This document shows positions 32,301 through 56,493 of a stretch of 64,000 nucleotides of DNA, one piece after another. Position 1 is the stretch's first letter; each line of letters begins with the position of its first letter. The DNA lies in contig JAUCBJ010007758.1 of NCBI GenBank assembly GCA_032718475.1, positions 56,813 through 120,812 on the forward strand, read 5' to 3'. The DNA comes from Nemertoderma westbladi (lineage: Eukaryota; Animalia; Xenacoelomorpha). Position numbers and translations under genes: made by a program. Below the pieces are notes generated by a model. That model was not told where the DNA came from and made no database searches. It worked only from the letters and a program-made list of their open reading frames with translations.

Positions 32301-32689
32301 CCACCTCTACTACACTACCACACTCTCGGCAATAGAATTTAGTCTCCAACACACAGTGGTTCATAAGCCGCGCTAGACTGGCTTCTACTGTGGTCATATT
32401 TTGTATAGGTTGTCACACATCATAAGACACATAAATTTGCTCATGAAACTGTTAAAGGTCTAAAAGCGCGAACAGATTGACTCCCACTAAATAATATTAT
32501 TTTTTAAATGCATATTGTTTTCCAGTATAATAAAGTTGTGTTAACTAAATTATAATCATCAAAGAAAAGTATTCCAACGTAGGGCCAAATAGTAAATAAT
32601 ATACAACATAGAGTAGAATACAAATATTACAGCAGTCTGAATTCATTTTTTCCCAACATAAGCTCAGAAATTTTTTTTTTTCAAGAAAC

Positions 32690-32948
32690 ATTTTCTAGAT
32701 CATCCGTATCTCCAAGGCTAGTGTCCATTAAGATGTGTCTCAATCAAGTCATGGGCTGTCCACCATGCTTATTCACTCTATGAGGCTGCCAAAGTACAAT
32801 ATTATGCACTGGCTGGTCCTCACTGCGAGAGCAATGTCCTGCAAAGCAGAGGCGATTTTGTTCTAGTGTCAAGCTTGAGGGAACCAATGAGACACCTCCA
32901 ATGTTATATAGTGTCTGGTTGGAGATGTGTGCATTGTACTTGACAATG
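32690..32948 (-). mobile_element. RTE LINE 3' fragment
   Basis: Reverse complement matches 41469-41730 with scattered substitutions. Confidence 0.85.
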
Positions 32949-32993
32949 TTGGTTTGACAATCGTTCAGTGAGATATTTTACCTCAGAGAAAAA

Positions 32994-34069
32994 TGTGACG
33001 GGATCCAACGGGGATCCCGATTTATCCGGTTTCTAATCTACAATCCCCACCGTGCGTATTTGAAAAGAGTTCTGATTGTTGGTTGATCAATGCATATAGA
33101 TATAAGGGTATGATAAATAATAAGATATAGCACAGTTAAAGTGAACGATGTATAATGTACTGGTAAAATGGTTTAATACTGTATAGCAGTAGACGGAGAT
33201 GAATGTGATTAGAGTTCCGGTACTACCCTAACTAACTGACTTACTGAAGTGAATAAATTGGCACAAGAACCGGTGATATATATTGCACTGGTTGGCCGCA
33301 TTACGTTACTCAGTTGACGCCTTCCCCCCATTGGCTAATAACTCACTTCTCACCCTCCCATCTCCCTGAGAGTGCCCCCCCCCCCCCCGCTGCTGTCTCT
33401 CTCTCCCTTCCGTAAGTGTAACCTCTGACCCCAGCTGTGTGTGTTCCCTTGGGGCCTGTTGTCCCCGCTTATTGGGGTGACACGAGGTTGATTGGTAATC
33501 AACCTCGTGCTCCCAATATCGCCTAAACCAACTTTGTGTGGGCCTGGTTAGCGGAATTGAATACGCTAACACTCCCCCCCATGCTATCTTCCTGGTGAGA
33601 AGATAGCATCCACCTCTAGTGCGCTACAATTCCGCCGGATCTCGATCTAGCATCGAGTGTGGGGTGGAACTATTTTTCACGGAGCCGGCTTTCCAGACCG
33701 CCCCCTATGGGTATGATATCGCTACCCTGTTTACCTGGCGTCCCGTGTCGGGCCAATCGTGCGCTTCTCTCACACGACTTTTGTTTCCCCAACACTTTCG
33801 CCACTCCAACTCCACTCTGTTCTCACCCTGACTCTCCTCCACTTCTCCTCACTTCCGCTCTAACTCTCGGATTTCCCTGTCCCTCACCCCGCCTCCTCTT
33901 ATTCCCCCCCCCCCCCCCATACTTGAATTGCACCTGCACTCTCTCCGCACTACAACTCAACCCCTATCTTACCCACCCACTCCCGACGAGTTTTACCCCC
34001 CTCCTGTGCCGTTGCACTCAAGAAGAGTGATGTCGTCCAGTGTCTCGTCCGCGGTAGTATTATAGTCCA
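32994..34069 (-). mobile_element. LTR type A, copy 2 (complete, 1076 bp)
   Basis: Minus strand TGGACTATAATACT...CCCGTCACA. Abuts LTR B across a 2-nt spacer. Confidence 0.88.
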
Positions 34070-34255
34070 TTTGTGACGGGATCCACAGAGGATCCTGATT
34101 TATCCTGTTTTTAATCTACGCGCCCCGCCGTGTGTGAAAGGGTAAAAAGAGTTGTTGATTGCTGTATATAGTTCTTCGGGTATATAATAGTATAAGATAA
34201 ATATAAGATATTGATATAAGATGTACTGATAGTGAGATATGATATTGGCACTGGA

Positions 34256-37023
34256 CGGTCAGGGCCCTAAACCGATTAGGTTCTCTGTTCGCAGAACACC
34301 GAACACTATTCCGGCCACGGAACTAGTCCAGCAGAATGCCTTTATAGAATCCTGGGATTTGGGGGACGAGAGGATCTCAGCAACTAAGCGAAAACGAACA
34401 ATAGGATGTTCCTAGACCCCCCAACAAAATTTATCTAGAAGACTTTTTCCCATATACATTACGTTTCAAAAGTCTACGGTTCTCCGGCTAGGGCCAATTT
34501 GAGTCAAAAAGTCAGCTTCCCTAGCAACCTCGTTGCTATGGAGATAAGTCCAGAACCGCTAATGCTACGGACTTGGGACCGGCGCCAAACTGTAGGCAGC
34601 ATATGGGTTTACCTTCACAACCTTTTTTTTGGAGCGATCAGATCATGATCTTGACCATGATCAGCAAAGATCCGTTTTGATCAGCAATCGGACACTCAAG
34701 GCTTGCTCCAATCGAAAAACTTAAGATTACAAAAAGATTCAGCGACCCCACGTTAGTCATAATTCCCGTTAAAAGATTTTCAAAAAAGTGAATTCTTCCT
34801 GGTGAAAACGCAAGATCATGATCGCGCAAAGATCGGATGTCGTAAAATCGTAACTAAGCATTTTGGATATAAACAATTACTGTAGGAAACATTCAGAACA
34901 CCGCCCTGAGTCGATAAAAAAAAAATTGGCTCGATCGGACAGCCGGTTCTCGAGATCTGATACCTGATCATTAAAGATCATATTTTTTGGTTATTTCCAA
35001 TTTTCTCGAAAACTTTGTTTGAGACCCCCGATTTTTTTTTAAAGAATCGACTTCTATGGTGAAGGGGCAACTTTTGAGCATTTCGAAATTTTCAAAAAGC
35101 GATTTGATCAGGCCGCGATCAGAAAAGATCGTGTTTTTGGTTTTATTTCGAAGACCAAGTCCTGGGAGTTCACCGTATGGAAAAACTTAACATCACAAAA
35201 AGATTCCTCACCCTCGAATTAGGGGGGGTAGCCAAAATTTTGGCATAAAAAAGTTCAAGTCTAGTGGGTCAAAACTCAAGATCATGATCGCGAAAAGATC
35301 AGTGTATTTAAAATCGAATCTAAGCATTTTTTAAATAAACATTTATTGTAAGAAATTTTCAATGGTCTATTCTGAGTTGATTTAAAAAAAAATTGGCTCG
35401 ATCGGTCAACCGGTTCTCGAGATCTGATACCTGATCATTAAAGATCATATTTTTCGGTTTTTTCCAATTTTCTCGAAAACTTTGTTTGAGACCCCCGATT
35501 TTTTTTTTACTAATCGACTTCTATTAAGAAGGGGAAACTTTTAAGCATTTCGAAATTTTCAAAAAACGATTTGATCAGGCCATGATCAGGAAAGATCATG
35601 TTTTCGGTTTTATTTCGAAGACCAAGTCCTGTGAGTTCACCGTATGAAAAAACTTAACATTACAAAAAGATTCCTCACCCTCGAATTAGGGGGGGTAGCC
35701 AAAATTTGACCATAAAAAAGTTCAATTCTAGGGGGTCAAAAGATCATAATCGCGAAATGATCAGTTTTTTCGAAATTACTTCTGAGCATTTTGGGGCAAA
35801 ACTTTCAAACTAAAAAACATTCACTGGAGTGTTCTAAGTAGATTAAAACGTTAAAGTTAGATGGTCGTCCAAAGTCTGCTTCCGGTAATTCGAAAATATT
35901 TCGAAAACCCTAGATCGAATTTTTTTCTTGAAAAAATGTGAATGTACAGTTAGTGGACCCGCATCTAACGATATATCACAATCCATATTTCGGATGACAG
36001 GTACCGGTGAAATCAGACTTTACCAAAAAAATTTCAAATTTTAGCTACTCATGTCTGACTATCTTGAAAACTATAATAGATATGAAAATACTTTCACTGC
36101 AAGAAATGTTCGCCTATCCAATGTGCTTTTAACGCTGTGCTCGGATTTTGCATAGTGTCAAAACCTACAACTTAACCCCCCCAGTGGAGGGAACGGAGTG
36201 ACCGGAGCGCCAGTACTATCTTTCATTATTATATAGTCATAAGGGTGGTGGGTGGGGTAGGTGGTGAATACTATTTATAGGGTGGAGGGAGGGTCTAGTA
36301 TATTACTTTAGGATATTTGATTTCTTTGCAATATAGTTTAGCTGCCTCAGTCTTATTTGTAATATGTTATACATTATACCAAATTATATCAAGTTTAACA
36401 TATTACATTGTCTACCTGTAGGAGAAATATACAATGTAGGGCTCATAATATATTTATAAATAGATTTAGTATATTTACATTGTATAACAGAGTGAATTGA
36501 TACTATTACGGTATTATAGTAAAGATTCCGCTTTGATATATCTGATCAAATGGCAATTTCTGGTAAATTATTTATTTCACTATCTTGGGTATATCATTCA
36601 ATTTCTAAAACTATAATAATAAACATTTACTTCACTTCTTGTTTACTCGCATGGATATATTGATATAAAACACATCAGTATAATATCTTATAGGGCCAAA
36701 CGCAGATTAATCGGAATAATATGTTTAATTAATTATTATTACAATTGGCACATTGAAGTAAGTAGTACATGAGTTTGATAAAATAATTATGAATCCGTAT
36801 CTTATTCTACTTTGTCTATATGGTTATGTTATATAATAATGTTACTTTATCACTTTGGTTTAAACTCATCTCCTTTATAACTACTTACTACCACTACTAA
36901 CTACTATTACTACTACTACCTACTACTGCAGAGTTAGGTGTATATTATAAGAGGACGGGGTTCGTGATTATTAGTTATTATACTAGTGCCCCTCGGCTAT
37001 AGAGAGTCCACCCTCGGTTACTT
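34256..37023. mobile_element. Unclassified non-coding insertion with internal ~465-bp tandem repeat
   Basis: Absent from LTR B copy 1. Flanked by ACTGGA (34250-34255, 37024-37029). A GATC-rich unit recurs at ~34814, ~35280 and ~35742. Confidence 0.7.
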
Positions 37024-38471
37024 ACTGGATGTACTGACGGTAAGACGAGACGGTAATTAAAGTTCCGGTACTACCCTAGCTAAACTGACTTACTACAAAG
37101 TGAATGAAATGATTACTGTACTGACAATATATTGCACGGTTGGCCGCGTTGCACTACCCAGCCGATGCCTTCCCCCCATTGGCTAAAGACTACCAGCGAC
37201 CAAGAATGCAGTTAAGGCTGCATCTAGGTCCCTGAACAGGCAGTACTCTGTTAATCTACAGGAGCTAATAAACCAACAGGTTGACATCAATGATGCTGAC
37301 GACAGCAGGCAATCATCCCAGGCATGGAAATCGATCAATCTGCTTACTGGGCGGAAAAGCCAACCAACCACCAAGGTTAAGGCTGAATCACCAGCCGATC
37401 GCCTCAATGGTTGGAAAGCCCACTTTGAAAAGCTCCTCAATAATGACAGGGTATTGCCTGATAACTTTATAGAAGTAAAGGTGTCTGAGTCTGTACTCCC
37501 AGATATTCCCATTGGCGATATCTCCTTTGCAGAAGTGAAGGCTGCTGCAAAGAGCATTAAGACCAATCGTGCCAGTGGAGTAGATGGTGTTCCCCCTGAG
37601 GTCTTTAAAATACCTGAGTATTTAAAGCTCATCTATCCCATCATAGTAGACATGTACCGTACAACAAGAGTCCCACAAGAAATGAAAACAAATAAGTTGG
37701 TGCCAGTTCCCAAGAAGGGCAACCTAACACTCTATGGTTCTTTTCGGGGAATCTAATTGATCTCGATTGCTGCAAAGCTATACAATAGGATTCTATTTAA
37801 TCGCATCAGGGATCCCATTGAGAGACTGCTCCGTGGAAATCAGAATGGGTTCCGTAAAGGTCGTGGGACCATGGAGCCCATTTTGGCACTTAGAAGGATA
37901 ATTGAAGAATTATCAAAAAAGAAAGACAGGCATCTGGCTGTTATCTTTGTTGACTTCTTCAAGGCCTTTGATTCAGTCTCTCGCTCACGTATGTTCAGCA
38001 TACTTTCATTATATGGGATTCCTGATGAAATTATTGCAGCAATCAGATCAGTATACGATGGTTTGACAACATTTGTGTCTACTGTTGACGGTGACACGGA
38101 ACCATTTGAAGTGTTATGGGGCATCCTCCAAGGAGACACACTTGCACCATTCTTGTTCATTATTGTGGTTAACTATGTTCTACACATGTCCTTAGATCAT
38201 CATAATGATGATGGGGTGATGATAACTCCACCTACTGGCTCCAGAAGTCGAGGAAAGCCTGCCAAGTACCTAACTGATCTAGACTTTGCTGATGACTTAG
38301 GAGTACTCTCAGAATCATTAGAGGGAGCCCAACGGCTCCTCAGCTCATTAGAACATGCTGCTTCTAGTGTTGGTCTTTTTATTAACTCCAGAAAGACCAA
38401 AATTCTGACAGTTAACTTTGAAAGTCCTCAGCAAGTCTCTGATCGGATGAGCATATGCTCAAGGGATGATA

Positions 38472-41213
38472 TTTATTTATTTATTTCCTTTCCATTATCG
38501 GGCACTAATGACCCATGCTACTGTACGTACATTTTTAATATACTAAACGAAACACATAGCACAAAAATTAATTACGGTTGGACCCTACAATCTATAATTA
38601 AATTCACAGTGACCGACAATCGACCAAAGAAAAAAAGAACAAAAATGAAACCAATAGAACTTCATTATACACTATCATTACAAAGTGAAAAATGCAAAAA
38701 AATACAAAAAAAAAACAACAAATTTACGAGGGTGGATATTTATGGCCCAGTATTGCGAATATATTAATTATAGAATATTACACAGATAGAAGTACTTCCC
38801 AACGGTCCCGTATAGTCGAGGACGTACAAATATTAAAACAAACTGAAAGTAAATCGTTACTAGTAGACGCTACTCGCCTTGCGAGCGAGCCTGCCGCAAC
38901 CCTACATATTGCTACAAAAGTATTAACTCGATTATTTACAAAAATTGTATCCGCGTCATCACAGCGACTATACTTAAAAAGTAACCTGAACGCAGTATTG
39001 TAAGCTACACGGACCTTACGCAGTTCCTCAACTCTAAATATACTCCACAATGAAGTACAATAAAGACTGTAACAATAAGTTTTAAATAGCGCTCGTTTCA
39101 CTGGCAATGAGCAACCGCCAAAGAAACGTGCTAACTGGTTACCACGGCGATAAAGAGAACGCTTAGCAACCATCATATCAGACTCATCTGACAGTGAACT
39201 ACTAAGTATGTGTCCTAGATAAGTAAGTTCTTTTACGCAAGGTATTATTTTACCACATAAATAAACATCCCCAGATCTACCTAGTTTACGTGGGTGAAAA
39301 TATAAACACTTAGATTTACCGGGGTTATACAGAATATCGTGATCGATACCATACTTTTCACAGATTCGTAATAGCACTCTCAGACCCTGAATACTAGGGG
39401 CCAAGACACAAAGGTCGTCGGCGTAAAGTAAGTTATTTAATCTACTGGACCCAACTTTACATCCTACAGAAGCACGATTTAATAATTTACTCAAATCATT
39501 AAGATAAATGTTGAACAAAAGAGGAGACAACAACGAGCCTTGTCGTACAGAGTTACCGACACGAAAACCAGCTGAGGTAGCATTACCCCAGGTTACAGTT
39601 AGCACTTGGTTAGTGTACCAGTAGAATAAAATACGTACTATACACACGGGTACTTTGAGATTTAATAATTTCTGAAAAAGTTTGTAATAATTAACCCGAT
39701 CGAACGCTTTAGAGGCGTCTAAGAATGCCACATAAACAGGCGAGTCACGGGAGATATATAAATGAACTGTTTCTTTAAGAACATATATACAAGTCTCGGT
39801 ACCCAGTCCTGGACTAAAACCAAATTGATTGTCGGTCAATTTCGTTTTTCCCTTAATTCTACCAAATATACAAGATTCAAACACTTTAGCACAAATATTA
39901 GATATATTTATAGGCCTATAATTATCCTTATCAGACAAAGAGGCATTCTTATTCTTTACAATAGGAAACAAAGCACAAACCATAAATGAACTGGGAAGAT
40001 ATCCATGCGTTAATAATGCATTAAACAATAACGATAAAATAACACAGAGCTTATCACCGGCATACATAAAATGTTCCGGACAGACGCCATCGGGCCCGGC
40101 GGCCTTCCCGCCATTCAGCCCCTCGATAGCCGATTTTACTTCGCGAGGGGAAACATGAGTTTTCCCCTCACCATCCCAATTTTCAAAGGTTTTCTTTAGA
40201 GACGAGATATCTTTCTCGTTGACGTCAACTGAGTTAAAAATACGTTCATAATTACCACGAAACAGATCAGCAATATCCGCGTCAGAATGAGCGTCACCAA
40301 CTGAAGACGCTCTAGGGATTCTAGAATTAGTTATTTTCTGGGTTTGACGCCAAAAGTCCTTATTAGAAGCGAGAAATGAATCGGCCAATTTATCATTCCG
40401 AATCTCCTTCTCTCGGGCTCTACAGTTACGTAGAGCCAATTTATATTGAGCTGACGTTTTCCTTTTTACTTCCCAAAGCAACCCCGTCTTAGGGTTTCCA
40501 TTTTCCCGCCAAATACGGAAGGCCTCACGAGAGGCCTCACGTTTTTCTTTCACAAATTCATTCCAACCGGGGACCACTGGTTTGTTAGGGCCCCCCGTTT
40601 TAGAATCCGGAAAACATTCCGAACCAGAATTTTTCAAAATACGCATAACATTATCATGTAGCAACTGAAATTGTAACAAATGTGCCTCGTTGCAACAATG
40701 TACATCAGAACAAATAATTGCTTCGTGGGGCAATATAATATCAGAAAATAAAACATTAGTACGATCGGCATATGCACGTTTCATGTTATTATCTACTTTG
40801 TCCCAGAAGGGGGCGCTATAATTCTTACGTGAGACATTATTCAAATTATTAGTTCCATTACAAAAATTATCACACTGCGAAAAAATAAATTTGAATGAAA
40901 TAGGCATATGATCAAAATCTGACACCTCATACAGTATCTTCATATCCAAAATTAACTTATGAAATTCGCAACTCGATATCACGTGGTCGAGCCAAGACAC
41001 GGTACCGTGTACATGGCTCGTGTATGTGAACGAGTTACTAGGTAACAAATGAGAGTCAGAAATATACAGCTTTTCATTGTCGCAAAATTTCATAAGTTCC
41101 TTGCCAAAGCTTCGGCGCGGGTCAGCGTTAAAGTCTCCCAATATACAGTTACTAGTAAAAGTATTAAAATCAATGATCGAACCACATTTACCCAATAATA
41201 ATATATATATATA
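38472..41213 (-). mobile_element. 5'-truncated RTEX-like LINE
   Basis: TSD ATGATAT (38465-38471, 41214-41220). (taaa)n tail. Removing it restores the RTE frame CSRDD-MLEHVDDF. Confidence 0.88.
38778..41195 (-). CDS. LINE ORF2 (partial APE + RT), uninterrupted frame
   Basis: ILGDFNAD, WLDHVI, FDHMPI, PGWN, YRPI, FLDASKAFDRV, VRQGSLLSP, LYADD and LFKTYCYSLY. The ORF-track N-terminus above ~41200 is antisense RTE sequence. Confidence 0.9.
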   Translation of the reverse strand: MGKCGSIIDFNTFTSNCILGDFNADPRRSFGKELMKFCDNEKLYISDSHLLPSNSFTYTSHVHGTVSWLDHVISSCEFHKLILDMKILYEVSDFDHMPISFKFIFSQCDNFCNGTNNLNNVSRKNYSAPFWDKVDNNMKRAYADRTNVLFSDIILPHEAIICSDVHCCNEAHLLQFQLLHDNVMRILKNSGSECFPDSKTGGPNKPVVPGWNEFVKEKREASREAFRIWRENGNPKTGLLWEVKRKTSAQYKLALRNCRAREKEIRNDKLADSFLASNKDFWRQTQKITNSRIPRASSVGDAHSDADIADLFRGNYERIFNSVDVNEKDISSLKKTFENWDGEGKTHVSPREVKSAIEGLNGGKAAGPDGVCPEHFMYAGDKLCVILSLLFNALLTHGYLPSSFMVCALFPIVKNKNASLSDKDNYRPINISNICAKVFESCIFGRIKGKTKLTDNQFGFSPGLGTETCIYVLKETVHLYISRDSPVYVAFLDASKAFDRVNYYKLFQKLLNLKVPVCIVRILFYWYTNQVLTVTWGNATSAGFRVGNSVRQGSLLSPLLFNIYLNDLSKLLNRASVGCKVGSSRLNNLLYADDLCVLAPSIQGLRVLLRICEKYGIDHDILYNPGKSKCLYFHPRKLGRSGDVYLCGKIIPCVKELTYLGHILSSSLSDESDMMVAKRSLYRRGNQLARFFGGCSLPVKRALFKTYCYSLYCTSLWSIFRVEELRKVRVAYNTAFRLLFKYSRCDDADTIFVNNRVNTFVAICRVAAGSLARRVASTSNDLLSVCFNICTSSTIRDRWEVLLSV

Positions 41214-42787
41214 ATGATATGCTTGAGCATGTGGACGACTTCTGTTACCTGGGATCATGGATCCGGAAGTCAGGTGAGGACCTTCGAATACGTAAGGGAA
41301 AGGCATGGGCAGCCTTGAATAGGCTTTTCAGGATTTGGAAGTCACCGATAATTAATTGGAAACTTAAGGTCCGATTATTTAGAGCAGCAGTAGTTCCATG
41401 CTGGGCTCTAACTGCTGAGGACACCAAATCTCTGGATGGCACATTCACAAGAATGCTACTCCGGGTTCATTGTGTCAAGTACAATGCACACATCTCCAAC
41501 CAGACACTATATAACATTGGAGGTGTCTCATTGGTTCCCCCAAGCTTGACACTAGAACAAAATTGCCTCCGCTTTGCAGGACATTGCTTTCGCCGTGAGG
41601 ACCAGCCAGTGCATAATCTTGTACTTTGGCAGCCTCATGGAGTGAATAAGCATGGTGGACAGCCCATGACTTTCTTGAGACGCATCTTAAAGGACACTGG
41701 CCTTAAAGATGCGGATAATCTAGCAAATGTCATGGGTGATAGGGAGTTGTGGCGGTGTAATTTTGTTGACAAGCTGGCACAGCATTCTTAAAAATGCAGC
41801 TGCAATGCAGCATGCCGATCCTAGTAGTTCCCCCCCATTGGCTAATAACCCTGTTGTCGCCCTTCTACCTCCCTTTGGAGTGCTTCCCTTTATCCCTGCT
41901 ATTCTCTCTCTCTCAGGGGTGTAACCCCTGACCCCTATTGTGCATTTTCTTATTGGGGTTTCTCCTTCCCACTTTGTTGGGGTGACACGAGATTGATTGA
42001 TCGCTCTCGTGTTCCCCAATATTGCCTAAACCTAACTCTATGGGGTGGTTAGCGGAATTGAATAAGCTAACACTCCCCCCATGCTATCTTCCCAGTGAGA
42101 AGATAGAATCCACCTATAGTGTGCTACAATTCCGCTGGATCCCGATCTAGTATCGGGTGTGGGGTGGGCCTATTTTCTTGGAGCCGGCTTTCCAGGCCGC
42201 TCTCTATGGGTATGATAATGCTACCCCATCTTGGTACAACTCTACCTATCTTGTACCAAGACATGTGGCATCCCGTGTTGGGCCAATCGTGCGCTTCTCT
42301 CACACAATATTGCTTCCCCAACGCTTTCGCCCTAACTCTCCTCCACTCTTACCCCAACTCTCACATACTCTCGAACCTCCTCGTCCCACGCTCTTTCTCT
42401 TACTTCCCCCCCCCCGCACTTGAATTGCGATCACACTCTCTCCACACTCTGCACTCTCTCCACACTACAACTCAACCTCTATCTTGACCACTCACTCCCA
42501 ACGAGTTTCACCCCCCTCCTGTGCCGTCGCACTCAAGAAGCGTGATGTCGTCCAATATTTTGTCCGTGGCAGTATTATAGTCCATTGGTCCCCAGTCCCA
42601 GTAGCTAATTGAGAAAGGTTGTATGACTATAGTACTTACTTCGAATATATATATCTATTACTAGGTTACTGATTGCTACGTACGTACATACAAATTGCAC
42701 TTATTCAATTATTTTAGATTACTTGAATTTGTACTTAAGAGTTTGCACGTCTTGCGTGGTGCCTTCCAGGCATGCCACATCGAAGTC

Positions 42788-44233
42788 TCAGTTTGTTCCT
42801 CCTGACTTTGGGAACCATCTCAGGTCTTTCCCCCTGTCGTCCTCCTCCCTAGGTCGCTTCTTGGCCGCTGCCGCTCCCTTGGCCTTATCCCCCTTTAGGC
42901 CCCTGACCTTCGCCGTCACCTTTTTACTGATCCCGGTCGTCGGCTCCTTGGGCGCTGGTGTTATCAGTTCCCGGTATCGCTTTGCGGGTGGCCCCTCCAA
43001 ATGACCCTGCTGTCTCCCCCTCGTGGCGTCCCATAAGATTGTTTTCATTGCCCGCGGCACATGCTTTGCCAAGAAATCTCTGAACTCCCCTCGGTTCTGT
43101 GGCGTCCACCTGTCCTAATACCTTTGTGTATTCATCACCCCGGCATACGACGCCGCCTTTGCTACCTCCTGATAGGTGAACGGTAGCCTTTGTTTGATGA
43201 TCTCCAAGTGAGCCTCCTGATTAATACTGAAAAAGCCCCACCTCAACTCCTGGGCCTTCATACGTTGCCGTGTCATGGCCCCGATGTCGGTCCACTCCTC
43301 GAAGATTCTGAACTTCTCTTCGTCGTCCATCCAATCGCACTGGCATCCGTAGTGTCCCCAAAAGTTACACTTCAAACATCGGTTATGCAACCGTGAACAC
43401 GCCCCCATCCTGTGGCTTGACTCGCGGCAGTAGAGACAAGTAGTTCCTTTCTGGAACCGGTACAAACAGCTCCTTTCCTGGTGGGTCTGTCTCCCACAGT
43501 AGTCACAGCCGAGTACAAATGCCTCCCACCCCAAATTGTCTTTTGCCCTAAGCGATTTCCGCGGTCTATGGAGTTGCTGCTGAGCAAACTTTTGGATGTT
43601 AGCGTCCCTGTTCACGTCGATCTCCTCGCCCCTCCCGGGCATCGTCTCCCCAAATACTACCCGTGGTGCCGTTCCCAGTTGCTCGCCCAACCTGATGGTG
43701 CTCGCCACAAAATCCATCGCCGGCTCCTCATGCACCCAGGCCCGCTTGCCGGGTCTGTCCCAGAAGGCCCTCACCCCACTGGCCATCACCACCCTCCCGC
43801 CAACCCAGTCTGTGTCCGAGTGGCCCAACCTTCCGATGGGCGGCATCTCTCCGAATTCATCGTCATCCTCGTCCTACTCTGGGAGTGGCTCCAACCCCGG
43901 TATCCCGGTGGATCCACTGTGTCCCTTCCCACCTTTGCTCTTGCCTTTAACTTTCCATCCTTCCAGCTCCCCTAGCCTCCTAGGTGGCTGGTCACCCTCG
44001 GCGCCCGCTGGTATGGGCGTCGCCTGCAGTCCCGACGTCGATTGTTTTGGCGATCCCACCGTCCATCCTAGTTCTTGCCCTAGCGACTCCCCCGAACTCC
44101 CTGACAACGTCCAACAAAGTTTGTCTAAGGCCGCCTGTTCATCAAAGCCATAGCTCTGCGCCCTAGCTTCCTCCTCTCTTTCTTCCGCCTCTCTTCTCTC
44201 CTGTCTAGCAATTTCTTCTAATCGCTTTGCTTC
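42788..44233 (-). pseudogene. C-terminal part of extra ORF: coiled coil, three CCHC-type knuckles, basic tail
   Basis: EAKRLEEIARQERREAEERE follows the TGA in frame. Knuckles CDYCGRQTHQERSC, CLYCRESSHRMGAC and CLKCNFWGHYGCQC (43115-43846). K/R-rich tail. Contains stops and a frameshift. Confidence 0.7.
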
Positions 44234-45295
44234 TCATCTGTCCGCCTCTAGCTGCTCCCATCTCTGATACGGCGTATCTATGTCCCTGTCTACCAGATGT
44301 CGGCAGTTATAGTACACCGACTCGCCCTTCAGCCCCGGGTGGTCTACCAGACCCTCAAAAGCCGTTTTAAAGGCTCTTCTGTAGCTTAGGGGTGATCCCG
44401 ATAATAGGAATGCCGTTGGTTCCTTCCCAATGACGATGGTCATGAATAGGTTAAGCAAACCCATCATTATCCAGTCCTCCTGTAGGATATATCGCTTCTG
44501 ATATACCTTTATCGCTCCTCTCCGGAATTGATACACCTCTTGTTTCCCTGGCCTTGCTCCCCACTTCAGCGAGTTTGCCAGGTACGCTCCGTACTCCCCT
44601 CTGAACTTGCTCCAATCCATCGGTTTGTGACACACGAGCTCCATTAGCTGGCCCATTGCCACCGCCCCGCAATGTCCTGTGTTCTCCACTAGCCCCAACC
44701 GGTCTGGTGCTATCATAGCCATGTAGACCGTCTGCATATCCAGAAGGTTGGGGGTGTCCGGACCGATGATTTTCTCCGCATCGTCGCAAATCGCCGATCC
44801 CACTTTCGTCGTCGACTTCTCTCTCACTAGGGTTTGCACTGCCTTCGGCAACCGGTTCACCTTCGGCCCGTCCTTCTTTCCATACGTCCCCAGATCGAAT
44901 AGGAATATGTCCCCATTTGGCGCACCCAAATGTAGGAGTATGGTTCTGGCTGACACTGCCGATTCTCTCCTCAAACCTTCCTTGTCTTCCACGGTCCCCT
45001 CATCGTCTAGGACCAAGTATCCTTCTCTGCTGACGGACTCTACAAACCTCTTCCAATCTTTCCTCGGTGGCTCTCTCGCGTACTTTGGAATCCCGAACTT
45101 TGCCTCATCTCCTTTCACCAAGTAGTGGAAATGCTCGAAGATCGCGTTGTCCAGCGACGGTGTCCCGTAGGTCCCAACCAGCCACTGTTTGTGCACCTCC
45201 CTGAAATGGTCTGTAGCGCTCGCGCTCTGTGGCCTCTCTAACCGCTTGTAGTATCCCCTTGTCTTCTCTTCCGGATGCCTCTTGGTGAAATCCAC
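44234..45295 (-). CDS. DEDDy (RNase D/WRN/EXD-like) 3'-5' exonuclease domain, extra ORF of element F
   Basis: ExoI LVLDDEG; LLHLG..IFLFDL; LPKAVQTLV; ExoII KVGSAICDDAEKI; LLDMQ; ExoIII-like QKRYILQED. Start codon uncertain (GTG in the track). Confidence 0.75.
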   Translation of the reverse strand: MDFTKRHPEEKTRGYYKRLERPQSASATDHFREVHKQWLVGTYGTPSLDNAIFEHFHYLVKGDEAKFGIPKYAREPPRKDWKRFVESVSREGYLVLDDEGTVEDKEGLRRESAVSARTILLHLGAPNGDIFLFDLGTYGKKDGPKVNRLPKAVQTLVREKSTTKVGSAICDDAEKIIGPDTPNLLDMQTVYMAMIAPDRLGLVENTGHCGAVAMGQLMELVCHKPMDWSKFRGEYGAYLANSLKWGARPGKQEVYQFRRGAIKVYQKRYILQEDWIMMGLLNLFMTIVIGKEPTAFLLSGSPLSYRRAFKTAFEGLVDHPGLKGESVYYNCRHLVDRDIDTPYQRWEQLEADR

Positions 45296-45454
45296 CAGTA
45301 TCTCCTTTCCTGTGCTACTACCTACTTATTATTGCCAATGGATTATTTATTTATTTTAGTTATTTATTATTTTTTATTTTATGTGTGGGAAGGGCGTCTC
45401 GCCCTCAATCCCACCCCCCTCAGTCCAAATCTTGGACGACTAAACGCTACTCGT

Positions 45455-46450
45455 CTAAGGTGCTCCCTCTAGTAGGCAGCATTTGCCTACAGCCCTTCTG
45501 TAGGTCTTTCTATCTTTCGCCCCTATCTTGCCACCTATCCGCACTTCCACCGATCGGACTCTTCCGTCCTCATCGGAGTAAGTGCCCACGACTCTCGCCA
45601 ACCGCCATTGGTTGTTAATGATGGGATTGTTCGTGATGATCACCAGATCACCCAACCAGACCATCCAGATCTTATTTCGTCCACCCTATTTGCGACGATT
45701 ATAGGGTATTTCGTCCTTTTGTTATGTAGCCAGCCAAGCACTACCATGGAATCCGTCCAGTAGTGTGTTTCCACTATGTTGGGAATAACGTCCATTAAGT
45801 AGCCTGTGGCCCTAACTCCTAATCTTGCAGCTGTCAACTCGAGTTTCGGAACCGATGCTGAATCTGGTGGCGTCGACTTCGCCTTGCTAAAGGCAAGTCT
45901 GGGCTTGTGAGCCCCCTCTTGTTGTACTAAATAAAGTGCCGCTTTGTATGCCTTTAATAACGCATCGGAGAACATATGTAGATCCAGATTCGTCATGTCC
46001 CCATCTGGGAAATACACTCGTGGCATGCTGTATGTTTCCATCTGCTCCAAACTCTCTGTCCATATACACCACTGCGTTCTGATCTCTTCTGGTATCTCTG
46101 CATCCCACTCGTCCTTTAGTTTGTATACTCTCTTGAGTATCTGTTTCCCCGTGACTAGTAATGGGGATGCTAGGCCTAGGGGATCGTATATCCTTGCTAT
46201 GACAACACATAGCCCCTCTTTGTGTGGATTTCTGCGCCCTCCTCGCTTAACTGATACTTCAGTTCATCTGTCTCTTGGTTCCACACGATTCCCAGTGCCT
46301 TCTGTTCAGAATCTATTCGCTTGGTCGCCATGTCCTGTCCCCTAGCTGTCGTGGGATTATCCATGGTCGATTCTGGTCTCTCATCCTTTATCGCCTTGTA
46401 AATTCCTGTGAACTGGATTGGAATTTGGTTAGGTTAAAGCCGAATCCCTT
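45455..46450 (-). pseudogene. BEL/Pao pol remnants (RT end, RNase H, integrase C-terminus; RT core and integrase core deleted)
   Basis: ARIYDPLGLASP, LHMFSDA, VPKLELTAA, HYWTDSMVVLGW and VANRV, joined to GDLVII..WRLARV..RAVGKCCLLE. Confidence 0.88.
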
Positions 46451-48698
46451 AAGGATGTTGCAAACCTCGCGCCCTGTGTCCATGTTTACCTTTCTTTGGG
46501 TCTAGAGCCACGTGGAGTAGCAGGTAATAGGTCCTGTCCGTGTTTGGTTCATCGACCGGTAGTTCTATGGCCCATCCTTTCTCGACGTACTTCTTAATCG
46601 TTCTGTGGATGTACTCATTCTTCTCGGGGCTCCGTTTTAGTGTTTGCTTCAACTTACGAAGCCTCGTGAGTACCATCCCTCTATTGTCGGGTAGCGGTAG
46701 CTTCGGTAGCTTCCATACCATCCCTATGGTATACCGCCCCTCGTCACATTTCATTGACTCCTTTATGCTCTGTAGAGCCTGTTTGTCTTCTACCGAGGTC
46801 CCGACCCCGCTCTCTTTTAATCCCTCCAAATCCTGCCTGAGCAGTCTCCTGAGCTGCTCCTCCGCTCCCTCATCCCCCATCTCTCGCATAGTTCCCATGA
46901 ACATGCAGCCTGATGTCTCCGACATCCTAAATGGTATTTTACTCTTAATTGGGCCGCTCAGCATCCACCCGAATGGTGTTAAAATCGCCACCGGATCACA
47001 CTGCCTGTCTTCGCTGAAGACCGTTTGCATTCTTTTGTGGGCCGTCGGGCAGTCCATTCCTACTATGATGGATACCTTCCTAACGTCCACCTCTGGGATT
47101 GAGAAGTCGATAGTGTCCAGGAATTTATATTGTTCGACCTTGATGTTGGTTGGTCGCCTGGCGTTGATATTTATTGAATCTAGCACCTGGATGGGGTCGA
47201 TGTTCACCCCATAGTCGCATCCCGGTGCCACCGCTGCAATCGCGCACCGTCCGGTCCTCATCTCCAGGACCTCATCTTTGCTGGAGATGGTTGTTACCGC
47301 CATTCTACTTGGCCTCGTTCTTAATCCTATTTCTTTGGCCACCCAATCCTCAACTAAGGTGAAGGCTGCACCACTGTCAACCAGCATCAGTGTGGTCACT
47401 GATCGATTGCCTTCCCTGATCACTCGCACTGGTACTACCCCAAGTAGTACCGTTCCTCTCTTCTTTGCTCCCACGGTGCTCGTTGCCATTGTCTGACCTT
47501 TATTTCTACCGAACATAATTGGCGTTTTCTTGCATTGGTTAGTCCTATGTCCACTCATCACACATCGCAAACAGATTTCATTTCTTCTCGCGTATTCCAC
47601 CTGATCTTCTCTGGGTAGCGCCTGCCAGTACCTGCAGTTCATGGTCTGTAGAAGGGCATTTGTATGTAATTGGCATTTGCTCCTCTTTGGGTCGTAGCCG
47701 TCCTTATAAAGTGCGTTGCATATCGCACTTATATTTGTACCAAAGTCCATACTATCCTTATTGTTTGGGTTTGGCCTACTGGGCGTATTAGGGTTATGTT
47801 TATTTGTGTTGTTATTTTTCCCCTGTCCGCTCCATGATGTGGTCTTACCCCCGGCTACTTGTGGACTGGTAGTCCCCTGCGTTGCTGCGTACGGCAATGA
47901 CTGTCTGAGCTTTGGCAATGCGTTTGACGTATTGTGCTCTGGTTTCGGCCTGTGGTAATCAGTCTTTGGTTCCTTTCCCAGGCTATCCTCGCTATAGACT
48001 GGGTCCGTTATAAGTTCAGCTTCATAGTTTAAGAAGCTCCACATCTCTTCTAAAACCGGTTCCGCACCCTTCCTATCTCGAGTAGTGAAAGCGATTTTTC
48101 TCCACTTATTGTGCAGCCAAATCGGTAGTGCTTGCGCTATCGTGGTGATGTTGTTAGACGCGTTGAGTTTGTATGGCGCGTCCAGTGTCTTTAGTACGAT
48201 TAGCGCCTTATCGACTTTGTTAGCGAATGTCTTTATGCTAATGGGGTTATCCTGTAGGCCACCCGACGTTATGCCTCTCAGGGTTTGCCGGATGATCTTG
48301 GCCGGGTGCCCGTATTCCCTGTCTAACGCCCGCCATGCCGTCGTAAAGCCACCCTCGATGCCCTGGTATTGCCTCACGATGTCGTATGCTGGGCCTCCTG
48401 TATATACTTGCAGATATTTTAGGCACTCCGCCTGCGTCAAGTTCTTTGTTAATATTTCATTACTATACATGCGCCAAAATTGTAGGTATTCTTCCGGCCT
48501 ACTCCCATCGAATTTAAACGGTTCCACGGGTGGTAACTCGATCCTTGTTTTTAGTGCATTGATTAATGTGGCCATCCCCATCGCTTGCACTTCCAATGGG
48601 TTTGATGGGTGCTGTATAGGTTCTCCCGTTGGGTGCGTTTCCTCTGACTTGGATATATTATAGGGGGTAGCGGCCCCCTCCATATTTTTGTGTTGCAC
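46449..48698 (-). CDS. BEL/Pao gag-protease (element F), truncated at start of RT
   Basis: KFDGSRPEEY, CLRCVMSGHRTNQC, LVDSGA protease, TPFGWMLSGP, LPDNR and YYLLLH. Confidence 0.9.
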   Translation of the reverse strand: MQHKNMEGAATPYNISKSEETHPTGEPIQHPSNPLEVQAMGMATLINALKTRIELPPVEPFKFDGSRPEEYLQFWRMYSNEILTKNLTQAECLKYLQVYTGGPAYDIVRQYQGIEGGFTTAWRALDREYGHPAKIIRQTLRGITSGGLQDNPISIKTFANKVDKALIVLKTLDAPYKLNASNNITTIAQALPIWLHNKWRKIAFTTRDRKGAEPVLEEMWSFLNYEAELITDPVYSEDSLGKEPKTDYHRPKPEHNTSNALPKLRQSLPYAATQGTTSPQVAGGKTTSWSGQGKNNNTNKHNPNTPSRPNPNNKDSMDFGTNISAICNALYKDGYDPKRSKCQLHTNALLQTMNCRYWQALPREDQVEYARRNEICLRCVMSGHRTNQCKKTPIMFGRNKGQTMATSTVGAKKRGTVLLGVVPVRVIREGNRSVTTLMLVDSGAAFTLVEDWVAKEIGLRTRPSRMAVTTISSKDEVLEMRTGRCAIAAVAPGCDYGVNIDPIQVLDSININARRPTNIKVEQYKFLDTIDFSIPEVDVRKVSIIVGMDCPTAHKRMQTVFSEDRQCDPVAILTPFGWMLSGPIKSKIPFRMSETSGCMFMGTMREMGDEGAEEQLRRLLRQDLEGLKESGVGTSVEDKQALQSIKESMKCDEGRYTIGMVWKLPKLPLPDNRGMVLTRLRKLKQTLKRSPEKNEYIHRTIKKYVEKGWAIELPVDEPNTDRTYYLLLHVALDPKKGKHGHRARGLQHP

Positions 48699-49039
48699 GA
48701 CCTATTCTCGTACAAGGGGTTTGATGTTCTTACTCCTATTGGGGTATATTGTTGATATTGTGATCGGGGAATGTCACCCTGCCCCCCCCCCCCCCCCCCC
48801 CCCCCACCGGTATGTTTGGTACTGGGGTTGATGTTAATATATTGGGGCCCATACACCTATCCGTAATAATTCTCCCCTCCCCTGGGTATATGTTATGTCC
48901 CTGCATCCTGTAGTCATACTGCTGTGCTGGTACTGGTATAGGCCTATCAATTGCAGGCCTACCTGCCAGTACGTACTCCGCGACTTCCGGGTTTAATCCC
49001 GTCGCCCGCGCTATCCTATCAGTAGTATATGTTTGTATG

Positions 49040-49560
49040 ATACTGCGCCATGGTCACCCATAGCCCAGCATTACCATACATTTCTAGTACTCCATCCAAT
49101 CAGAAGCCACCATTTCAACCATTAGCAGCAATCGTTATTATTTCATCCAATCAGATGCCGGCATTTCATTCGTAGCCACGGTAACTTCTCAAGTTCCCGC
49201 TTATTCCGCTAGAGGCGTTATTAGTCACTCAACAAACTTCCTCTTCTAGTACTCCATCCAATCAGAAGCCAGCATTTCAACCGTAACCATGGTAACTTCT
49301 CATGTTCCCGCTTATTCCGCTAGAGGTGTTATTAGTCACCCAACGCCAGTACTGCATCCATTCACCAACCTTTATTTTACAGACGCTAGAGGTGTACAGG
49401 GCTACAGGTAACGTCTACTATTTTTTCAAATCGCTATTTTTTAGCAACCAGTATTTCCATATTCACCAACCTTTATTTTACAGGCGCTAGGGGTGTCTAC
49501 AGGTAACTTCTACTATTTTTCATTTCGCTATTTTTCACCAGTAACTAAATTTAATTTTGC
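49040..49560. repeat. Short degenerate direct-repeat cluster, probable non-autonomous element end
   Basis: ttctagtactccatccaatcagaagcc x2, ggtaacttctca.gttcccgcttattccgctagagg x2 and attcaccaacctttattttaca x2. Confidence 0.55.
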
Positions 49561-52500
49561 AATTTTTCAGATAACAAAATATTCAACCGGGTTCGAACTC
49601 GGGACCGTTATAACTCCCCACAATTCACCAATCACTCTTCCATCCAACCTCGAGAGAAAAAGGCGTCAAATATTCGAGTTATAGCTGTTGAATGCCAAGT
49701 AATAATTATTCAATATCGATTTATTCATCATAACTGGTCGCAGATGTTTACAAATAGCTTGTGGTAGTATCAATTATAAATTATTGTTCATTGAATTCTA
49801 TACTATAGCATATGTCACCAACGAGATCCAATTATTCTAATGATTTCGATAGCATAAAATGCATATTAATTAATACGAAATACATCTAACTAATAATAAT
49901 AATATACTTGTTCTACATACATTATCAGTACAATATTTACAGATAAAATTACGTTTGAATATAAGATGGAATGATAATTAATGTTTAGATGTAGGGTATT
50001 GATTGTTGTGAGTATGTGCTAGATATAGCAGTAATAGTGTTATTCGATATGTAACATTATGAAACAATGTCTCATGTATACACTGTAGTGTTGCAACTAT
50101 GTGTAGGTAAGTCAATGTGTCAGTGTTAATATAGTATATTACATTTTTTATAATATATTGGTTCTACAGAGTGATGCTGGGTTTTAGCACTGTTAATTTG
50201 ACATTTTTTTTTATTGCGAAATTAGATCATTAAAATTTTCATTAAAATTCCATGAATAAACTTTGCGAGACATTCCTTAACTATTCTTTGACAACAAATT
50301 GTCTATCTATCTATTTTGAGTAAAAAATGTGAAAAATAAAATGCAAGTCTTAAAAACTGAGTAAGTACTGTTATATTTATTTAAAAATATAAAATTTTGT
50401 CAGTAAATGCGAGACTGCTGTAATCATCTATTTTTTAGTAAAAAATAATAAACTTACTGTATATATGTTTAAAACCAAGCATCATGCTACAGAAAAAATA
50501 TTAACTTAAAATTCTTCACAAACTTATTAACTGAAAACAGTATCTAGCATATATCCAACGTTTAATTTTACATTTTTTTTTAGTCAAAGGTAGATTCACT
50601 GACATTGTTCTAGAACTTAATAGAATTTGCTGTCATGTTGCAGATCATCCTTCATATGCTGCCTATGGCGACTGATTTCACTTCTCTGCAAAATATTACA
50701 CGTATTTCCAGAATCTTTGAAATTTAGGTCTCCAGTTGTTAAAAACGATTCCTAGCCATATGACTTCTGTTGGATCGGTTGTAATACCTGTTGTCATAGG
50801 TTATGTCACATTGGTCATTACTGGGGTACGAGGTATGTTCAGATTGGTCTCTTAGATGAGGGTTTGGGAAGTGTTGATGTGGATAATCGTGTCTACTCAC
50901 TCTGTGCTTCTGATACTGCTGGTATGTTTGACTTTGGTGTCGAGATGGTTCTGGGGTATGTCTCCAAGAGTTCCTCACATACTCCGTATGCCTATTATTA
51001 TCTTGCGGGATAGATTTATATTGATTACCATTATAGTTGGCTTGATTGTTATTGTGCCAGTATGATTCCCTAGAGGTTTTGTAGTGTAGATCCACCCCTT
51101 TATTATTCCGCTTCATATCTGTGCTGCTTCTACTGCTTCCGTTTGTTGGAAGGGGTGCTTTGTTGGGTTTCTACAACCTTGTGATTTTCTTAGATTGACA
51201 GTTTCTTTGGAAACATTATTTAGATTTGCCAAGAAATCAGTCTGTTGTTGTAGAAGTATGGCAATTTTTGTATCATTATCTAGTTCACTATATTTGTTTT
51301 CAGTCCTAATGTTGTGCTGCCTCAGGATCTTTGATTTGAAGGTTGGTTTGGCAGGTCTTTTTGGTTCTTGCCAGGTGTCATTGTTTTTGAGGACTTGTTC
51401 TAGAGTAGAGGGACATTTCACTGATGGGTTTGTGATTATTACAGAGTCGTTTCTTATGTTTGTTGGTACCTGACTTCCTTGCAGGGATTTACCTTTCTTT
51501 TCCTTTATGCTGTATGAGTAAGTAGGATCCATTTCAGTTTCATTTGGATTGTCTGATATATTATCTACTGTTATATACTCATCAGTCTCTGATGGCGAAG
51601 ATATGTCAGTTGTAGAAGTTGTGGACTTCTAGATATGTCAGTTGTAGAAGTTGTGGACTTTTTCTAAGCCAAGTGGCACTAGGGACCTAGCAAAAATTTC
51701 TTTTGGATTTTGCATGATGCTCTCCACCCTGGCTGTTTCAATGAATTCATATGATGTCATAGCTTTGCTGAGTTTTGTCAGAGTCATATTCATTGCCTCT
51801 GTTGATGTTTCCTTTGGTTGTGTCTTCGGGGAATTCATAGTGGGATTCCTCGGATTTGGTTCTTGATAAATAAACTGCTGCCTGAGCCTAATACTGTATT
51901 ATTATGTGCTTCACTGTCACAGCCGATTTCAATAGCAACAGGCTTTGTGCAGGGAAGGTTATCTAATGAATTGGTGCGACGATGATTGCGTTGGTTAATC
52001 TTGCTAGCCTTTCAAGTGTTATGATGTTCCGTTCCCTTCTTTTGGGAAGCAGATTGAGAAGTGTATACTGGGAGTGTAATTCGAACATCTTTCATACATG
52101 TTCTTAGCCACCCAGTTTCGAACAGCTATGCTTCTCTCCTTGGGATTGATTGGAGGGCAAGATGAATGGCTTTTCAAGAAGAATGAATTTTTTTTGGCTT
52201 GTGAAATTTCATCAGTAAATGCAAGACTGCTGTAATCATCTATTTTTTTAGTAAAAAATAATAAACTTTCAGTATATATGTTGAAAACCAAACATCACGC
52301 TTCAGAAAAAATATTAACTTAAAATTTTTCACAAACTTATTAACTGTAAACAGTATCTAGCATATATCCAACGTTTAATTTTACATTTATTTTTAGTCAA
52401 AGGTAGATTCACTGACATTGTTCTAGAACTTAATAGAAATGTGAGCAAGACATTGAAGTACTATCTTAAAGTAGGTGTGACAATGTGTGAAATATATTTC

Positions 52501-55361: not shown

Positions 55362-56220
55362 TCAAATTAATATCAGAGCCGAAAGGAAATCCTTCCAGGA
55401 GACCCGAGCCGCCTCCATGTCTGTAAGCAACGCGGCCAGACCGGCCTCACGGCACAGACTGACGACCTCGGCCCCGGAGAACCCCTCGGTAGCGGCGACC
55501 AACGCCGAGAGATCCACGTCGGCCGCCACGGGAACCCGACGGAACTGGATGCGAAGAATCTCGAGTCGAGTTCGGGAGTCGGGGAGCGGCACGTAAACGA
55601 GACGGTCGAGTCGTCCGGGTCGGAGTAACGCCGGGTCGATAACGTCGGGACGGTTGGTCGCCGAGACGACCAGCACGCCCCCTAGCGTCTGGACGCCGTC
55701 CATCTCGGTTAGGAGAGTGGCCAGCACCCGGTCGGCGACGGACACCGCGCCGGTACGAGACGACGCCAACGCGTCCAACTCGTCGATAAATACGACGGAA
55801 GGAGCCGCGGTTCTCGCCTTACGGAAAAGCTCCCTGACCGCCCGTTCCGACTCACCGACGTACTTGTTGAACAACTCGGGTCCTTTAACCGAAATAAAGT
55901 TGAGTTTCGATTCGGTGGCCAACGCCTTGGCTATCAGGGTCTTAGAGCAGCCGGGTGGGCCGTACAGTAACACTCCTCTCGGGGGGTCTATACCCAGTCG
56001 GGTAAAGGCCGTGGGGTGTCGGAGTGGCCATTCCACCGACTGTCGGAGTTTCGTTTTAACGTCGTGCAGACCGCCGATGTCTGTCCATCGAACCGTCGGA
56101 ACTTCTATGTAAATCTCCCGCATCGCTGTCGGACGAATGGTTGCCATGGCAGCCAATAGGTCGTCTGTAGATATGGGCTCTCTACGATATGAGTCGATGT
56201 GATCTTCAGAATCACCAAAC
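55362..56220 (-). CDS. SPATA5: SPATA5/AFG2A AAA+ ATPase, exon 2 (D2 domain)
   Basis: [19 protein letters not shown] (AFG2-type Walker A), VKGPEL..KYVGESE, FIDELD and ALLRPGRLD. Acceptor ttttag at 56221. Frame matches exon 1. Confidence 0.9.
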
Positions 56221-56493
56221 CTAAAAATAAAACTAAAATAAAAAACTTTTAAATTAAATAGGGCCTACAACAAATGAAAAAAATTTAAAAGCATCACCAC
56301 ATTTTGATACGACCATGAAAAAATCCATCCTGAAAAATTGATTTAATCAAGATAAAAAGATCTAAGTGTTTCAAATAAACAGACTGAGTTTCCGAAGACG
56401 GTTTAGACTTCATCCAATGAATGATTAGTATTATATTGGTAGAATAATCTGATAAGGTAATAAATAAATAGGTTAAAAACGTTAGTTAATTAC

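Follow-up and report, generated by a model that had tools for sequence, protein, structure and literature searches.

What is a nuclease-like gene doing at the 3' end of a BEL/Pao retrotransposon, and does it belong to that element? The question is raised by a stretch of the Nemertoderma westbladi genome (GCA_032718475.1, contig JAUCBJ010007758.1, positions 56,813-120,812 of the forward strand), the whole 64,000 nt of which we analyzed and refer to as the window; coordinates below are positions within it, and both the open reading frame (ORF) in question, ORF3, and its BEL/Pao host element lie on the minus strand (-). The original prediction had placed a same-strand ORF of ~2.5 kb, with a DEDDy 3'-5' exonuclease and three zinc knuckles, in the env position of this element. 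Such an ORF is present beyond the integrase stop (45457-45455), where a DUF5641 match marks the integrase end, and it occupies the env slot, i.e., the space between the BEL/Pao integrase end and a polypurine tract followed by a repeat that resembles a long terminal repeat (LTR). Its parts and those of gag-pol, including the reverse transcriptase (RT), are as follows, with the basis of each in brackets.

42788-45325 (-): ORF3, a single frame of 846 codons interrupted by three stops (ORF list and translation)
44426-45073 (-): predicted DEDDy (EXD2/WRN/RNase D-like) 3'-5' exonuclease domain, residues ~85-300 (profile, fold, ESM features)
44150-44230 (-): charged single helix, residues 366-392, opening a low-confidence linker of ~240 residues (model)
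43229-43507 (-): three CX2CX4HX4C knuckles, residues 607-663, and a conserved helical extension to ~699 (motif, alignment)
42791-43048 (-): basic low-complexity tail, residues 760-845 (composition)
46449-49053 (-): BEL/Pao gag with DUF1759 and a knuckle, followed by aspartic protease and the beginning of RT (Pfam, ORF list)
46352-46491 (-): site of the RT core deletion, which removed the YxDD motif (tblastn)
45640-46352 (-): what is left of the RT C-terminus, then the RNase H region of Pao type (Peptidase_A17); the frame shifts near 46200 (Pfam, tblastn)
45455-45676 (-): integrase C-terminal remnant (DUF5641) with the stop at 45457-45455, core deleted (Pfam, tblastn)
42511-42520 (-): polypurine tract closing a conserved 76-nt spacer, 42586-42511 (sequence)

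ORF3 is broken by a few stops, as first described, namely at codons 364, 484 and 737 (44234-44236, 43874-43876 and 43115-43117). An internal frameshift, which had also been proposed, was rejected, since the four stop-to-stop segments in the window's ORF list (45325-44234, 44233-43874, 43873-43115 and 43114-42788) follow one another in a single frame, and one of the five indels listed at a share of at least 50% falls inside ORF3, where it occurs in two low-depth contigs from one of two runs. The open frame begins at 45325, and no ATG occurs in frame until codon 197, already within the nuclease domain; the start has thus either been lost in this copy or is supplied by splicing.

To which element does this ORF belong? 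We aligned same-species contigs from three studies to window positions 41000-50500, and the figures given here refer to the rows listed in those alignments. Contigs covered all 30 bins of the interval, and dozens of divergent contigs aligned at single sites within ORF3, as they did in gag-pol, indicating that ORF3 is multi-copy. Divergent contigs from all three studies together span the whole ORF. At two of the three ORF3 stops, every aligned contig differed from this copy (best 40 of 1129 rows). Synonymous codon usage in ORF3 correlated with that of the element's gag-protease (r = 0.72), compared to -0.56 to 0.23 for six other ORFs of the window. Among the joints and loose ends listed, none takes pol straight to the LTR. 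Summed contig depth, which is not a copy number, drops upstream of about 49650, and the codon positions of the 39 variant places listed (17 first, 8 second and 14 third) are uninformative, as they represent the top rows only. Together, the shared codon usage, the multi-copy status and the stops that differ in other copies make it very probable, as judged from sequence, that the ORF is ORF3 of this BEL/Pao family. Conversely, the persistence of the ORF despite deletion of RT and integrase, to which the original prediction had drawn attention, carries no weight: three stops break the ORF too, and the amplified form need not be the deleted one.

The BEL/Pao identity of the host was borne out by Pfam matches in the order protease, RT and RNase H followed by integrase: DUF1759 (E = 1.5e-10), aspartic protease (5.6e-5), Peptidase_A17 (3.7e-37) and DUF5641 (2.1e-9). 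The gag-protease frame changes near a G-run at 48772-48815. We used the second BEL/Pao element of the same window as a reference for pol, with which the gag-pol of the host is colinear. When this reference was compared by tblastn, similarity ended at residue 419 and resumed at 592, omitting the YMDD motif at 548, and beyond the RNase H region the integrase C-terminal end alone was left, so that the loss of both the RT core (YxDD) and the integrase core is confirmed. ORF3 starts 130 nt past the integrase stop. A 3' untranslated stretch follows ORF3. The polypurine tract of about 10 nt expected before the 3' LTR of a BEL/Pao element is present at 42520-42511, immediately before the LTR-like repeat, and not at 42599, where it had been misplaced. 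In the reference element, the 1668 nt after pol contain no frame of more than 88 codons and no match to the nuclease profile described below; the ORF3 gene is thus family-specific. A second purine-rich tract (45421-45409, -) lies right behind the integrase stop of the host, ahead of an AT-rich spacer, and is possibly an ancestral polypurine tract predating the gain of ORF3.

Predicted nuclease domain, zinc knuckles and protein relatives

We searched 1.84 billion representative sequences with phmmer at a cut-off of E <= 0.001 and obtained 39 matches, in 38 of which the best region was the knuckles; P0039 resembles an unrelated Gag-type knuckle protein. An alignment was built from 15 long matches chosen out of the 39, and a profile from 14 of these, this ORF excluded. 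That profile recovered ORF3 from the window at E = 1.4e-15 and scored its nuclease domain at 58.6 bits, compared to a maximum of 4.0 in 1000 shuffles. Against the PDB, the family profile matched trypanosome RNase D (TbRND; 7c42) at E = 4.6e-9, in two stretches that cover both domains, and EXD2 (6k17) at 6.7e-9, with a phage polymerase exonuclease at 2e-8 and weaker matches to Egalitarian (1.4e-4), WRN (2.4e-3) and EXOSC10 (0.49).

An alignment-based structural model agreed with these matches. Predicted local distance difference test (pLDDT) scores of 70-90 were confined to two of its parts, the nuclease core and the charged helix (80-90 in the latter). Foldseek of the model found EXD2 as the best hit (E = 3.6e-5), with TbRND, Egalitarian, Rrp6 and Nibbler also at E < 0.001. 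VIA-align gave Z scores of 13.6-11.7 and root-mean-square deviations of 3.3-4.9 Å over 166-210 residues (best Z 13.6, 3.4 Å, 178 residues aligned), with ties among polymerase A exonuclease, EXD1, NrnC, Nibbler and WRN, and ESM features placed the domain at 0.94 to WRN-like exonuclease clusters. Profile, Foldseek and VIA-align thus point to a DnaQ-like fold, and the DEDDy assignment of the original prediction stands: the ORF3 product is predicted by modeling to have a DEDDy exonuclease fold. Other attempts were negative: Pfam on four ORF3 segments gave nothing above noise, including no match to DNA_pol_A_exo1; phmmer of the N-terminal segment against the PDB returned two chance matches only; and a single-sequence fold of ORF3 (pLDDT 40) was not usable. 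Two other identities were rejected. An Rrp6-HRDC type is disfavored by the EXOSC10 match (E = 0.49, against 6.7e-9 for EXD2) and by the lack of an HRDC Pfam match in the ORF or its relatives, and an env gene by a top 19-residue hydropathy of 1.43 that falls inside a nuclease helix and by the lack of any env family in Pfam.

All of the motifs named at the outset could be located and aligned with the relatives: ExoI (D107-x-E109), ExoII (KVG..D182) and an ExoIII-like Y279-x3-E283. The ExoI D-x-E and the ExoII Asp also align, via the profile, with EXD2. The putative active site therefore comprises D107, E109, D182, Y279 and E283, with Glu at 283 where Asp is usual, followed by D284. The catalytic set of the 15 aligned relatives is D-E-D-Y-D in six, D-E-D-Y-E in two, N-terminally truncated with D-Y-D in two, and degenerate in five, so that ExoIII has Asp in 8 of the 15. 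Since the two relatives with Glu (P0006 and P0011) have the same D-E-D-Y-E set, the Glu appears from sequence to be a lineage trait and not obviously decay.

C-terminal to the nuclease, the three CCHC knuckles have the exact CX2CX4HX4C form (at residues 607, 630 and 650), and the tail is basic, as claimed, with 22 Lys plus Arg compared to 10 Asp plus Glu in 86 residues. The charged coiled coil held up in part: a charged helix of ~27 residues is modeled at 366-392, but it is a single helix and is not conserved in relatives. In the window's other BEL element, the knuckles of Gag were a weak match to the knuckle profile (E = 0.0045), and ESM matches for the knuckle part were below 0.9 and serve as leads only.

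The aligned relatives share a constant layout of nuclease, variable low-complexity linker, three Cys/His knuckles and helical extension, at an overall identity of ~20%. Their best-conserved part is the knuckle domain: the Leu-His that separates knuckles 2 and 3 is invariant, as are a Gly and a Thr of the helical extension. The core pattern of knuckles 2 and 3 is present in 35 of the 39 relatives; spacing varies in the family, and ORF3 is among the few members with three canonical knuckles. When the N-terminal domain was scored leave-one-out at E < 0.001, a nuclease preceded the knuckles in 16 of 39 relatives, all 16 being among the 19 of at least 450 residues. The fusion of nuclease and knuckles, which had been called unusual, is therefore real but no one-off, and trypanosome RNase D has it likewise. 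In the family tree, which is weakly supported for the most part, only one of 12 inner branches is starred and ORF3 stands next to P0011 at 87/14 (P0037 was excluded as too short).

Among 20 matches looked up, one cluster bore a name, "hypothetical protein"; the sources were ENA, JGI, NCBI and Logan contigs of 2-26 kb. The relatives are called as long uninterrupted ORFs, which would fit retroelement genes. DNA_pol_A_exo1 was matched in only 2 of 39 relatives, at E = 0.08-0.1, and the nuclease-triple-knuckle family has, as far as our sequence searches go, no Pfam name. A metagenome scan yielded two short loci, L001 and L002, with no RT or integrase recognized among the ORFs listed (Pfam was applied to one ORF of each and to P0002). 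In the ORF of P0002 (L002, 79-2025), the nuclease is degenerate and the triple-knuckle module is duplicated in tandem (585-nt repeat); beyond this ORF, 1.3 kb of non-coding DNA precede the start of another ORF; such an arrangement would fit ORF3-LTR-gag. L001 contains a 904-residue ORF (615-3329) in GC-rich DNA, with the knuckle domain and helical extension and without a nuclease. Scans of viral contigs returned one locus, L003, which is a phage DNA polymerase A, and scans of genome contigs none. Word-indexed homologue searches, one of them limited to 1795-5000 residues, gave no match and are uninformative, having missed relatives that phmmer found.

Possible roles of the ORF3 product

How could such a protein serve its element? 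The original prediction suggested that a captured nuclease could counter small-RNA silencing or process the RNA of the element. By analogy with TbRND, the three knuckles would grip single-stranded RNA and deliver its 3' end to the DEDDy site. Intact copies would have expressed ORF3 as a separate message, the D-E-D-E site would be active with RNA as its substrate, and the element would benefit from the trimming or degradation of RNA 3' ends. The targets that we favor would be host small-RNA guides or surveillance tails on the element transcript rather than intermediates of cDNA synthesis, because a third gene that other retrotransposon families can do without would most simply act against the host. 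In this explanation, the ORF3 product would be an RNA 3'-to-5' exonuclease of a BEL/Pao family, i.e., a knuckle-guided trimmer of 3' ends; combining sequence, model and analogy, we give the explanation as a whole an even chance. A bolder form of it is distinctly more doubtful, namely that there exists a widespread, unnamed family of retroelement accessory proteins in which an EXD2-like exonuclease and a new triple-knuckle RNA-binding domain trim or destroy the guides of PIWI-interacting or small interfering RNA pathways as a counter-defense, that it replaces env in BEL/Pao elements, and that its design is convergent with trypanosome RNase D. Were host small RNAs its targets, ORF3 would be a case of an animal retrotransposon that encodes an enzyme against silencing.

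Several observations weigh against an RNA-trimming accessory enzyme. Its fourth acidic ligand would be Glu, and the corresponding Asp is important in TbRND; catalytic residues are missing from 5 of the 15 aligned relatives; and in P0020, P0025, P0033 and L001 the knuckle domain is present while no nuclease could be detected. The linker of ~300 residues compares to ~28 in the published TbRND structure, and the mean pLDDT of the model is 50. The fold does not tell RNA from DNA as a substrate, with DNA polymerase A and WRN exonucleases tying with RNases. With respect to genomic context, the loci retrieved (L001 and L002) are short and show no relative in a retroelement setting. In the window, no contig among those listed bridges the integrase end to the ORF3 start with 31 nt on either side, since contigs skip the AT-rich spacer at 45338-45380; one joint, present in each of the two runs, connects 44747 with 45408, its shorter side measuring 21 nt.

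The loss of catalytic residues would be expected if catalysis were dispensable and the protein were an RNA-binding adaptor of the Egalitarian/EXD1 kind, which would localize, package or transport the element RNA and replace env as a means of germline access. The five relatives without a catalytic set nevertheless keep the knuckle domain, which is the best-conserved part of the family and occurs without the nuclease; the fold matches include EXD1 and Egalitarian, the latter also in its complex with I-factor RNA; and the ExoIII Glu of ORF3 is non-canonical. However, 10 of the 15 relatives retain all of the catalytic positions that they cover (two of them with the ExoIII Glu) at an identity of ~20%, which argues for selection on catalysis, and we regard the adaptor as possible but rather unlikely.

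In another explanation, the nuclease would act inside the particle, where it would process intermediates of replication by trimming either the tRNA primer or the 3' ends of the cDNA, and the knuckles would behave like a nucleocapsid. DNA-acting DEDDy domains (WRN, polymerase A and EXD2) score as well as RNases, the phage polymerase exonuclease matches the profile at 2e-8, the knuckle profile is weakly similar to the knuckles in Gag of the other BEL element (E = 0.0045), the 5' end of this element is atypical, and 3'-end processing is proposed for Dada DEDDy domains in the accessible text of PMC3706591. Yet the other BEL element of the window lacks such an ORF and the gene set described for BEL/Pao is gag and pol with env at most (PMC8742986), so that replication cannot generally depend on it, and it is not obvious how a separate ORF3 product would enter the particle; we consider this role improbable. 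Least probable of all is that the ORF and the downstream repeats come from a different mobile element, inserted at the BEL/Pao end or joined to it by recombination: despite the missing 5' LTR upstream of gag, the purine-rich tract right behind the integrase stop (45421-45409) and the lack of a full bridge among the contigs listed, ORF3 shares strand and codon usage with gag-protease, no RT or transposase lies between it and the repeats, a 14-15 nt repeat (two sites, 0.1 expected) brackets everything from gag through the last LTR-like end, and none of the listed joints or loose ends joins pol directly to the LTR.

Element ends and surrounding DNA

Beyond ORF3, the element ends in two diverged LTR-like repeats, types A and B.

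41831-42510 (-): 3' LTR-like repeat type A, piece 1, with a TG start at 42510, 96% identical to 9253-8575
37024-37186 (-): type A, piece 2, identical to 8589-8427 at 163/163 positions, past a nested long interspersed nuclear element (LINE) insertion
34072-34255 (-): type A, last piece, with a CA end, past a 2768-nt insertion with a 6-nt duplication
32994-34071 (-): a further spacer and polypurine tract, then the type B LTR-like repeat, which is 71-75% identical to type A and has a CA end
49647-49661 (-): 15-nt stretch that recurs with one indel at 32993-32980, past the type B end

Two nested insertions, each with a target duplication (14-15 nt for the LINE and 6 nt), split the type A repeat, whose pieces at 42503-41831, 37186-37024 and 34255-34072 match the unbroken 9253-8249 at 655/679, 163/163 and 178/184 positions; the type B repeat proper is 33995-32994. 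No LTR copy was found upstream of gag in the window, and this defective copy lacks matching LTRs on both sides. The 14-15 nt direct repeat (49661-49647/32993-32980), the first copy of which lies just upstream of the element's 5' untranslated region, occurs at two sites in the window compared to 0.1 expected per shuffled window, and it ties gag, ORF3 and the repeats into one unit, whether it is a target duplication or a conserved LTR/internal junction. Its appearance is that of a long target duplication, which would be unusual for LTR elements; the unit looks as though it had been inserted by other machinery or as a circle opened beside the primer site. The A-spacer/polypurine tract-B dimer at the element end (42586-32980) recurs at 9270-7265 with 96-100% identity. 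The TG end with which it opens there mirrors the CA end as an imperfect inverted repeat, and the two repeats seem to be mobilized together.

At 49630, a TGG-starting stretch presumably resembles a tRNA-Gly primer-binding site, tRNA-Gly and tRNA-Arg being the primers expected of BEL/Pao, and we take motifs at 49650-49590 (-) to be A-box/B-box-like or, alternatively, a split primer-binding site; ARAGORN and Rfam found no structured RNA in 32500-50500, including that interval. The LINE within the type A repeat (37187-41828, + strand), which we take to be RTE-like, has a short tandem tail and a 14-15 nt duplication and is itself interrupted by another LINE on the minus strand (ORF 38778-41327); the 3' end of the RTE-like LINE (41395-41828) is very high-copy in same-species contigs. 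The 2768-nt insertion (34256-37023) has its 6-nt duplication and internal repeats of ~467 nt. In the flank upstream of the element, 49785-50150 is represented by one very deep, nearly invariant contig (depth 2332, run X1) and is a young homogeneous repeat.

Elsewhere in the window, the second BEL/Pao element (16157-23413, -) is AT-rich, with long gag and pol frames and YMDD present. Its 300-nt repeats, one at 14190-14489 and the other at 27474-27773, are identical, and pol is followed by 1.7 kb of non-coding DNA. At 2829-3995, there is a third remnant of Peptidase_A17. At 55362-56264 (-), there is an uninterrupted 300-codon piece of an AAA ATPase, with visible Walker motifs and GC-rich third positions, which is a host gene exon or a retrocopy.

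Comparison with known systems

As a BEL/Pao (Belpaoviridae) element, the host is conventional in its DUF1759 gag, protease, Peptidase_A17, DUF5641 and a polypurine tract before a TG..CA repeat of ~1 kb. Unlike typical members, this copy lacks the RT core, the integrase core and a 5' LTR, and it ends in two diverged LTR-like repeats. The ICTV profile lists gag, pol and sometimes an env-like gene (PMC8742986); described third genes are thus env-like, whereas here we find an ORF for a soluble nuclease-knuckle protein. The word "exonuclease" does not occur in the accessible part of a BEL/Pao survey (PMC3118150), and the portions consulted of PMC13269885 and PMC12440569 contain nothing on DEDDy ORFs in BEL/Pao. 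We found no DEDDy ORF in BEL/Pao in the literature, with subscription journals, Repbase, GyDB and supplements outside the search and Figure 1C of the rotifer work possibly bearing on the point.

The closest precedents among mobile elements are the bdelloid rotifer Juno, Vesta and Athena/Terminon elements, whose DEDDy ORF3 has a DEED motif according to the text available (Rodriguez et al. 2017, PMC5408684). As described there, their ORF3 likewise encodes an RNase D-like DEDDy protein, follows pol in the position of env and has Glu in place of one catalytic Asp. None of the 39 relatives is identifiable by name as one of these rotifer ORFs. In contrast to the BEL/Pao element here, Juno and Vesta are gypsy-like and Athena/Terminon Penelope-like; the motif is DEED compared to D-E-D-E here, where the third position is D182 and Glu is the fourth; and the rotifer description, which we compared by its published text alone, mentions a Cys-His-Cys motif only and no triple CCHC. 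Dada DNA transposons also carry DEDDy domains, for which Kojima and Jurka propose 3'-end processing (PMC3706591), and reviews, in the sections seen, cite just the rotifer and Dada cases (PMC6338049, PMC6431247). In the literature as searched, enzyme cargo in the env slot is in print only for the rotifer gypsy-like and Penelope-like elements, and ORF3 extends it to BEL/Pao. It also defines a family not covered by Pfam, with a conserved three-knuckle domain and natural forms that look active, carry the Glu variant or are dead.

Among cellular proteins, EXD2, WRN, Nibbler (Mut-7), EXD1 and Egalitarian share the fold and the ExoI-III spacing, but at 10-17% identity, and they are cellular genes with other domain contexts. 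TbRND (PDB 7c42), the only solved DEDD-plus-CCHC enzyme that we found in the literature checked, is alike in joining a DEDDy domain to C-terminal CCHC fingers without HRDC, and it was the top PDB match across both domains. According to the parts of its description consulted, it is a kinetoplastid mitochondrial host enzyme that trims the U-tails of guide RNAs, whereas ORF3 is retrotransposon-borne, and it has four fingers after a 28-residue linker, compared to three knuckles and a helical extension after ~300 residues in ORF3. Since the nuclease part alone fits EXD2 far better than TbRND (E = 1e-8 and 0.13, respectively), the shared nuclease-CCHC layout may, on sequence grounds, be convergent. 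The TbRND fingers are reported, in the text seen, to contact RNA 5-9 nt from the 3' end, the CCHC domain being required for RNA binding and efficient trimming, and its D230A mutant to retain trace activity (PMC7797062). TbRND offers a ready structural template for the family.

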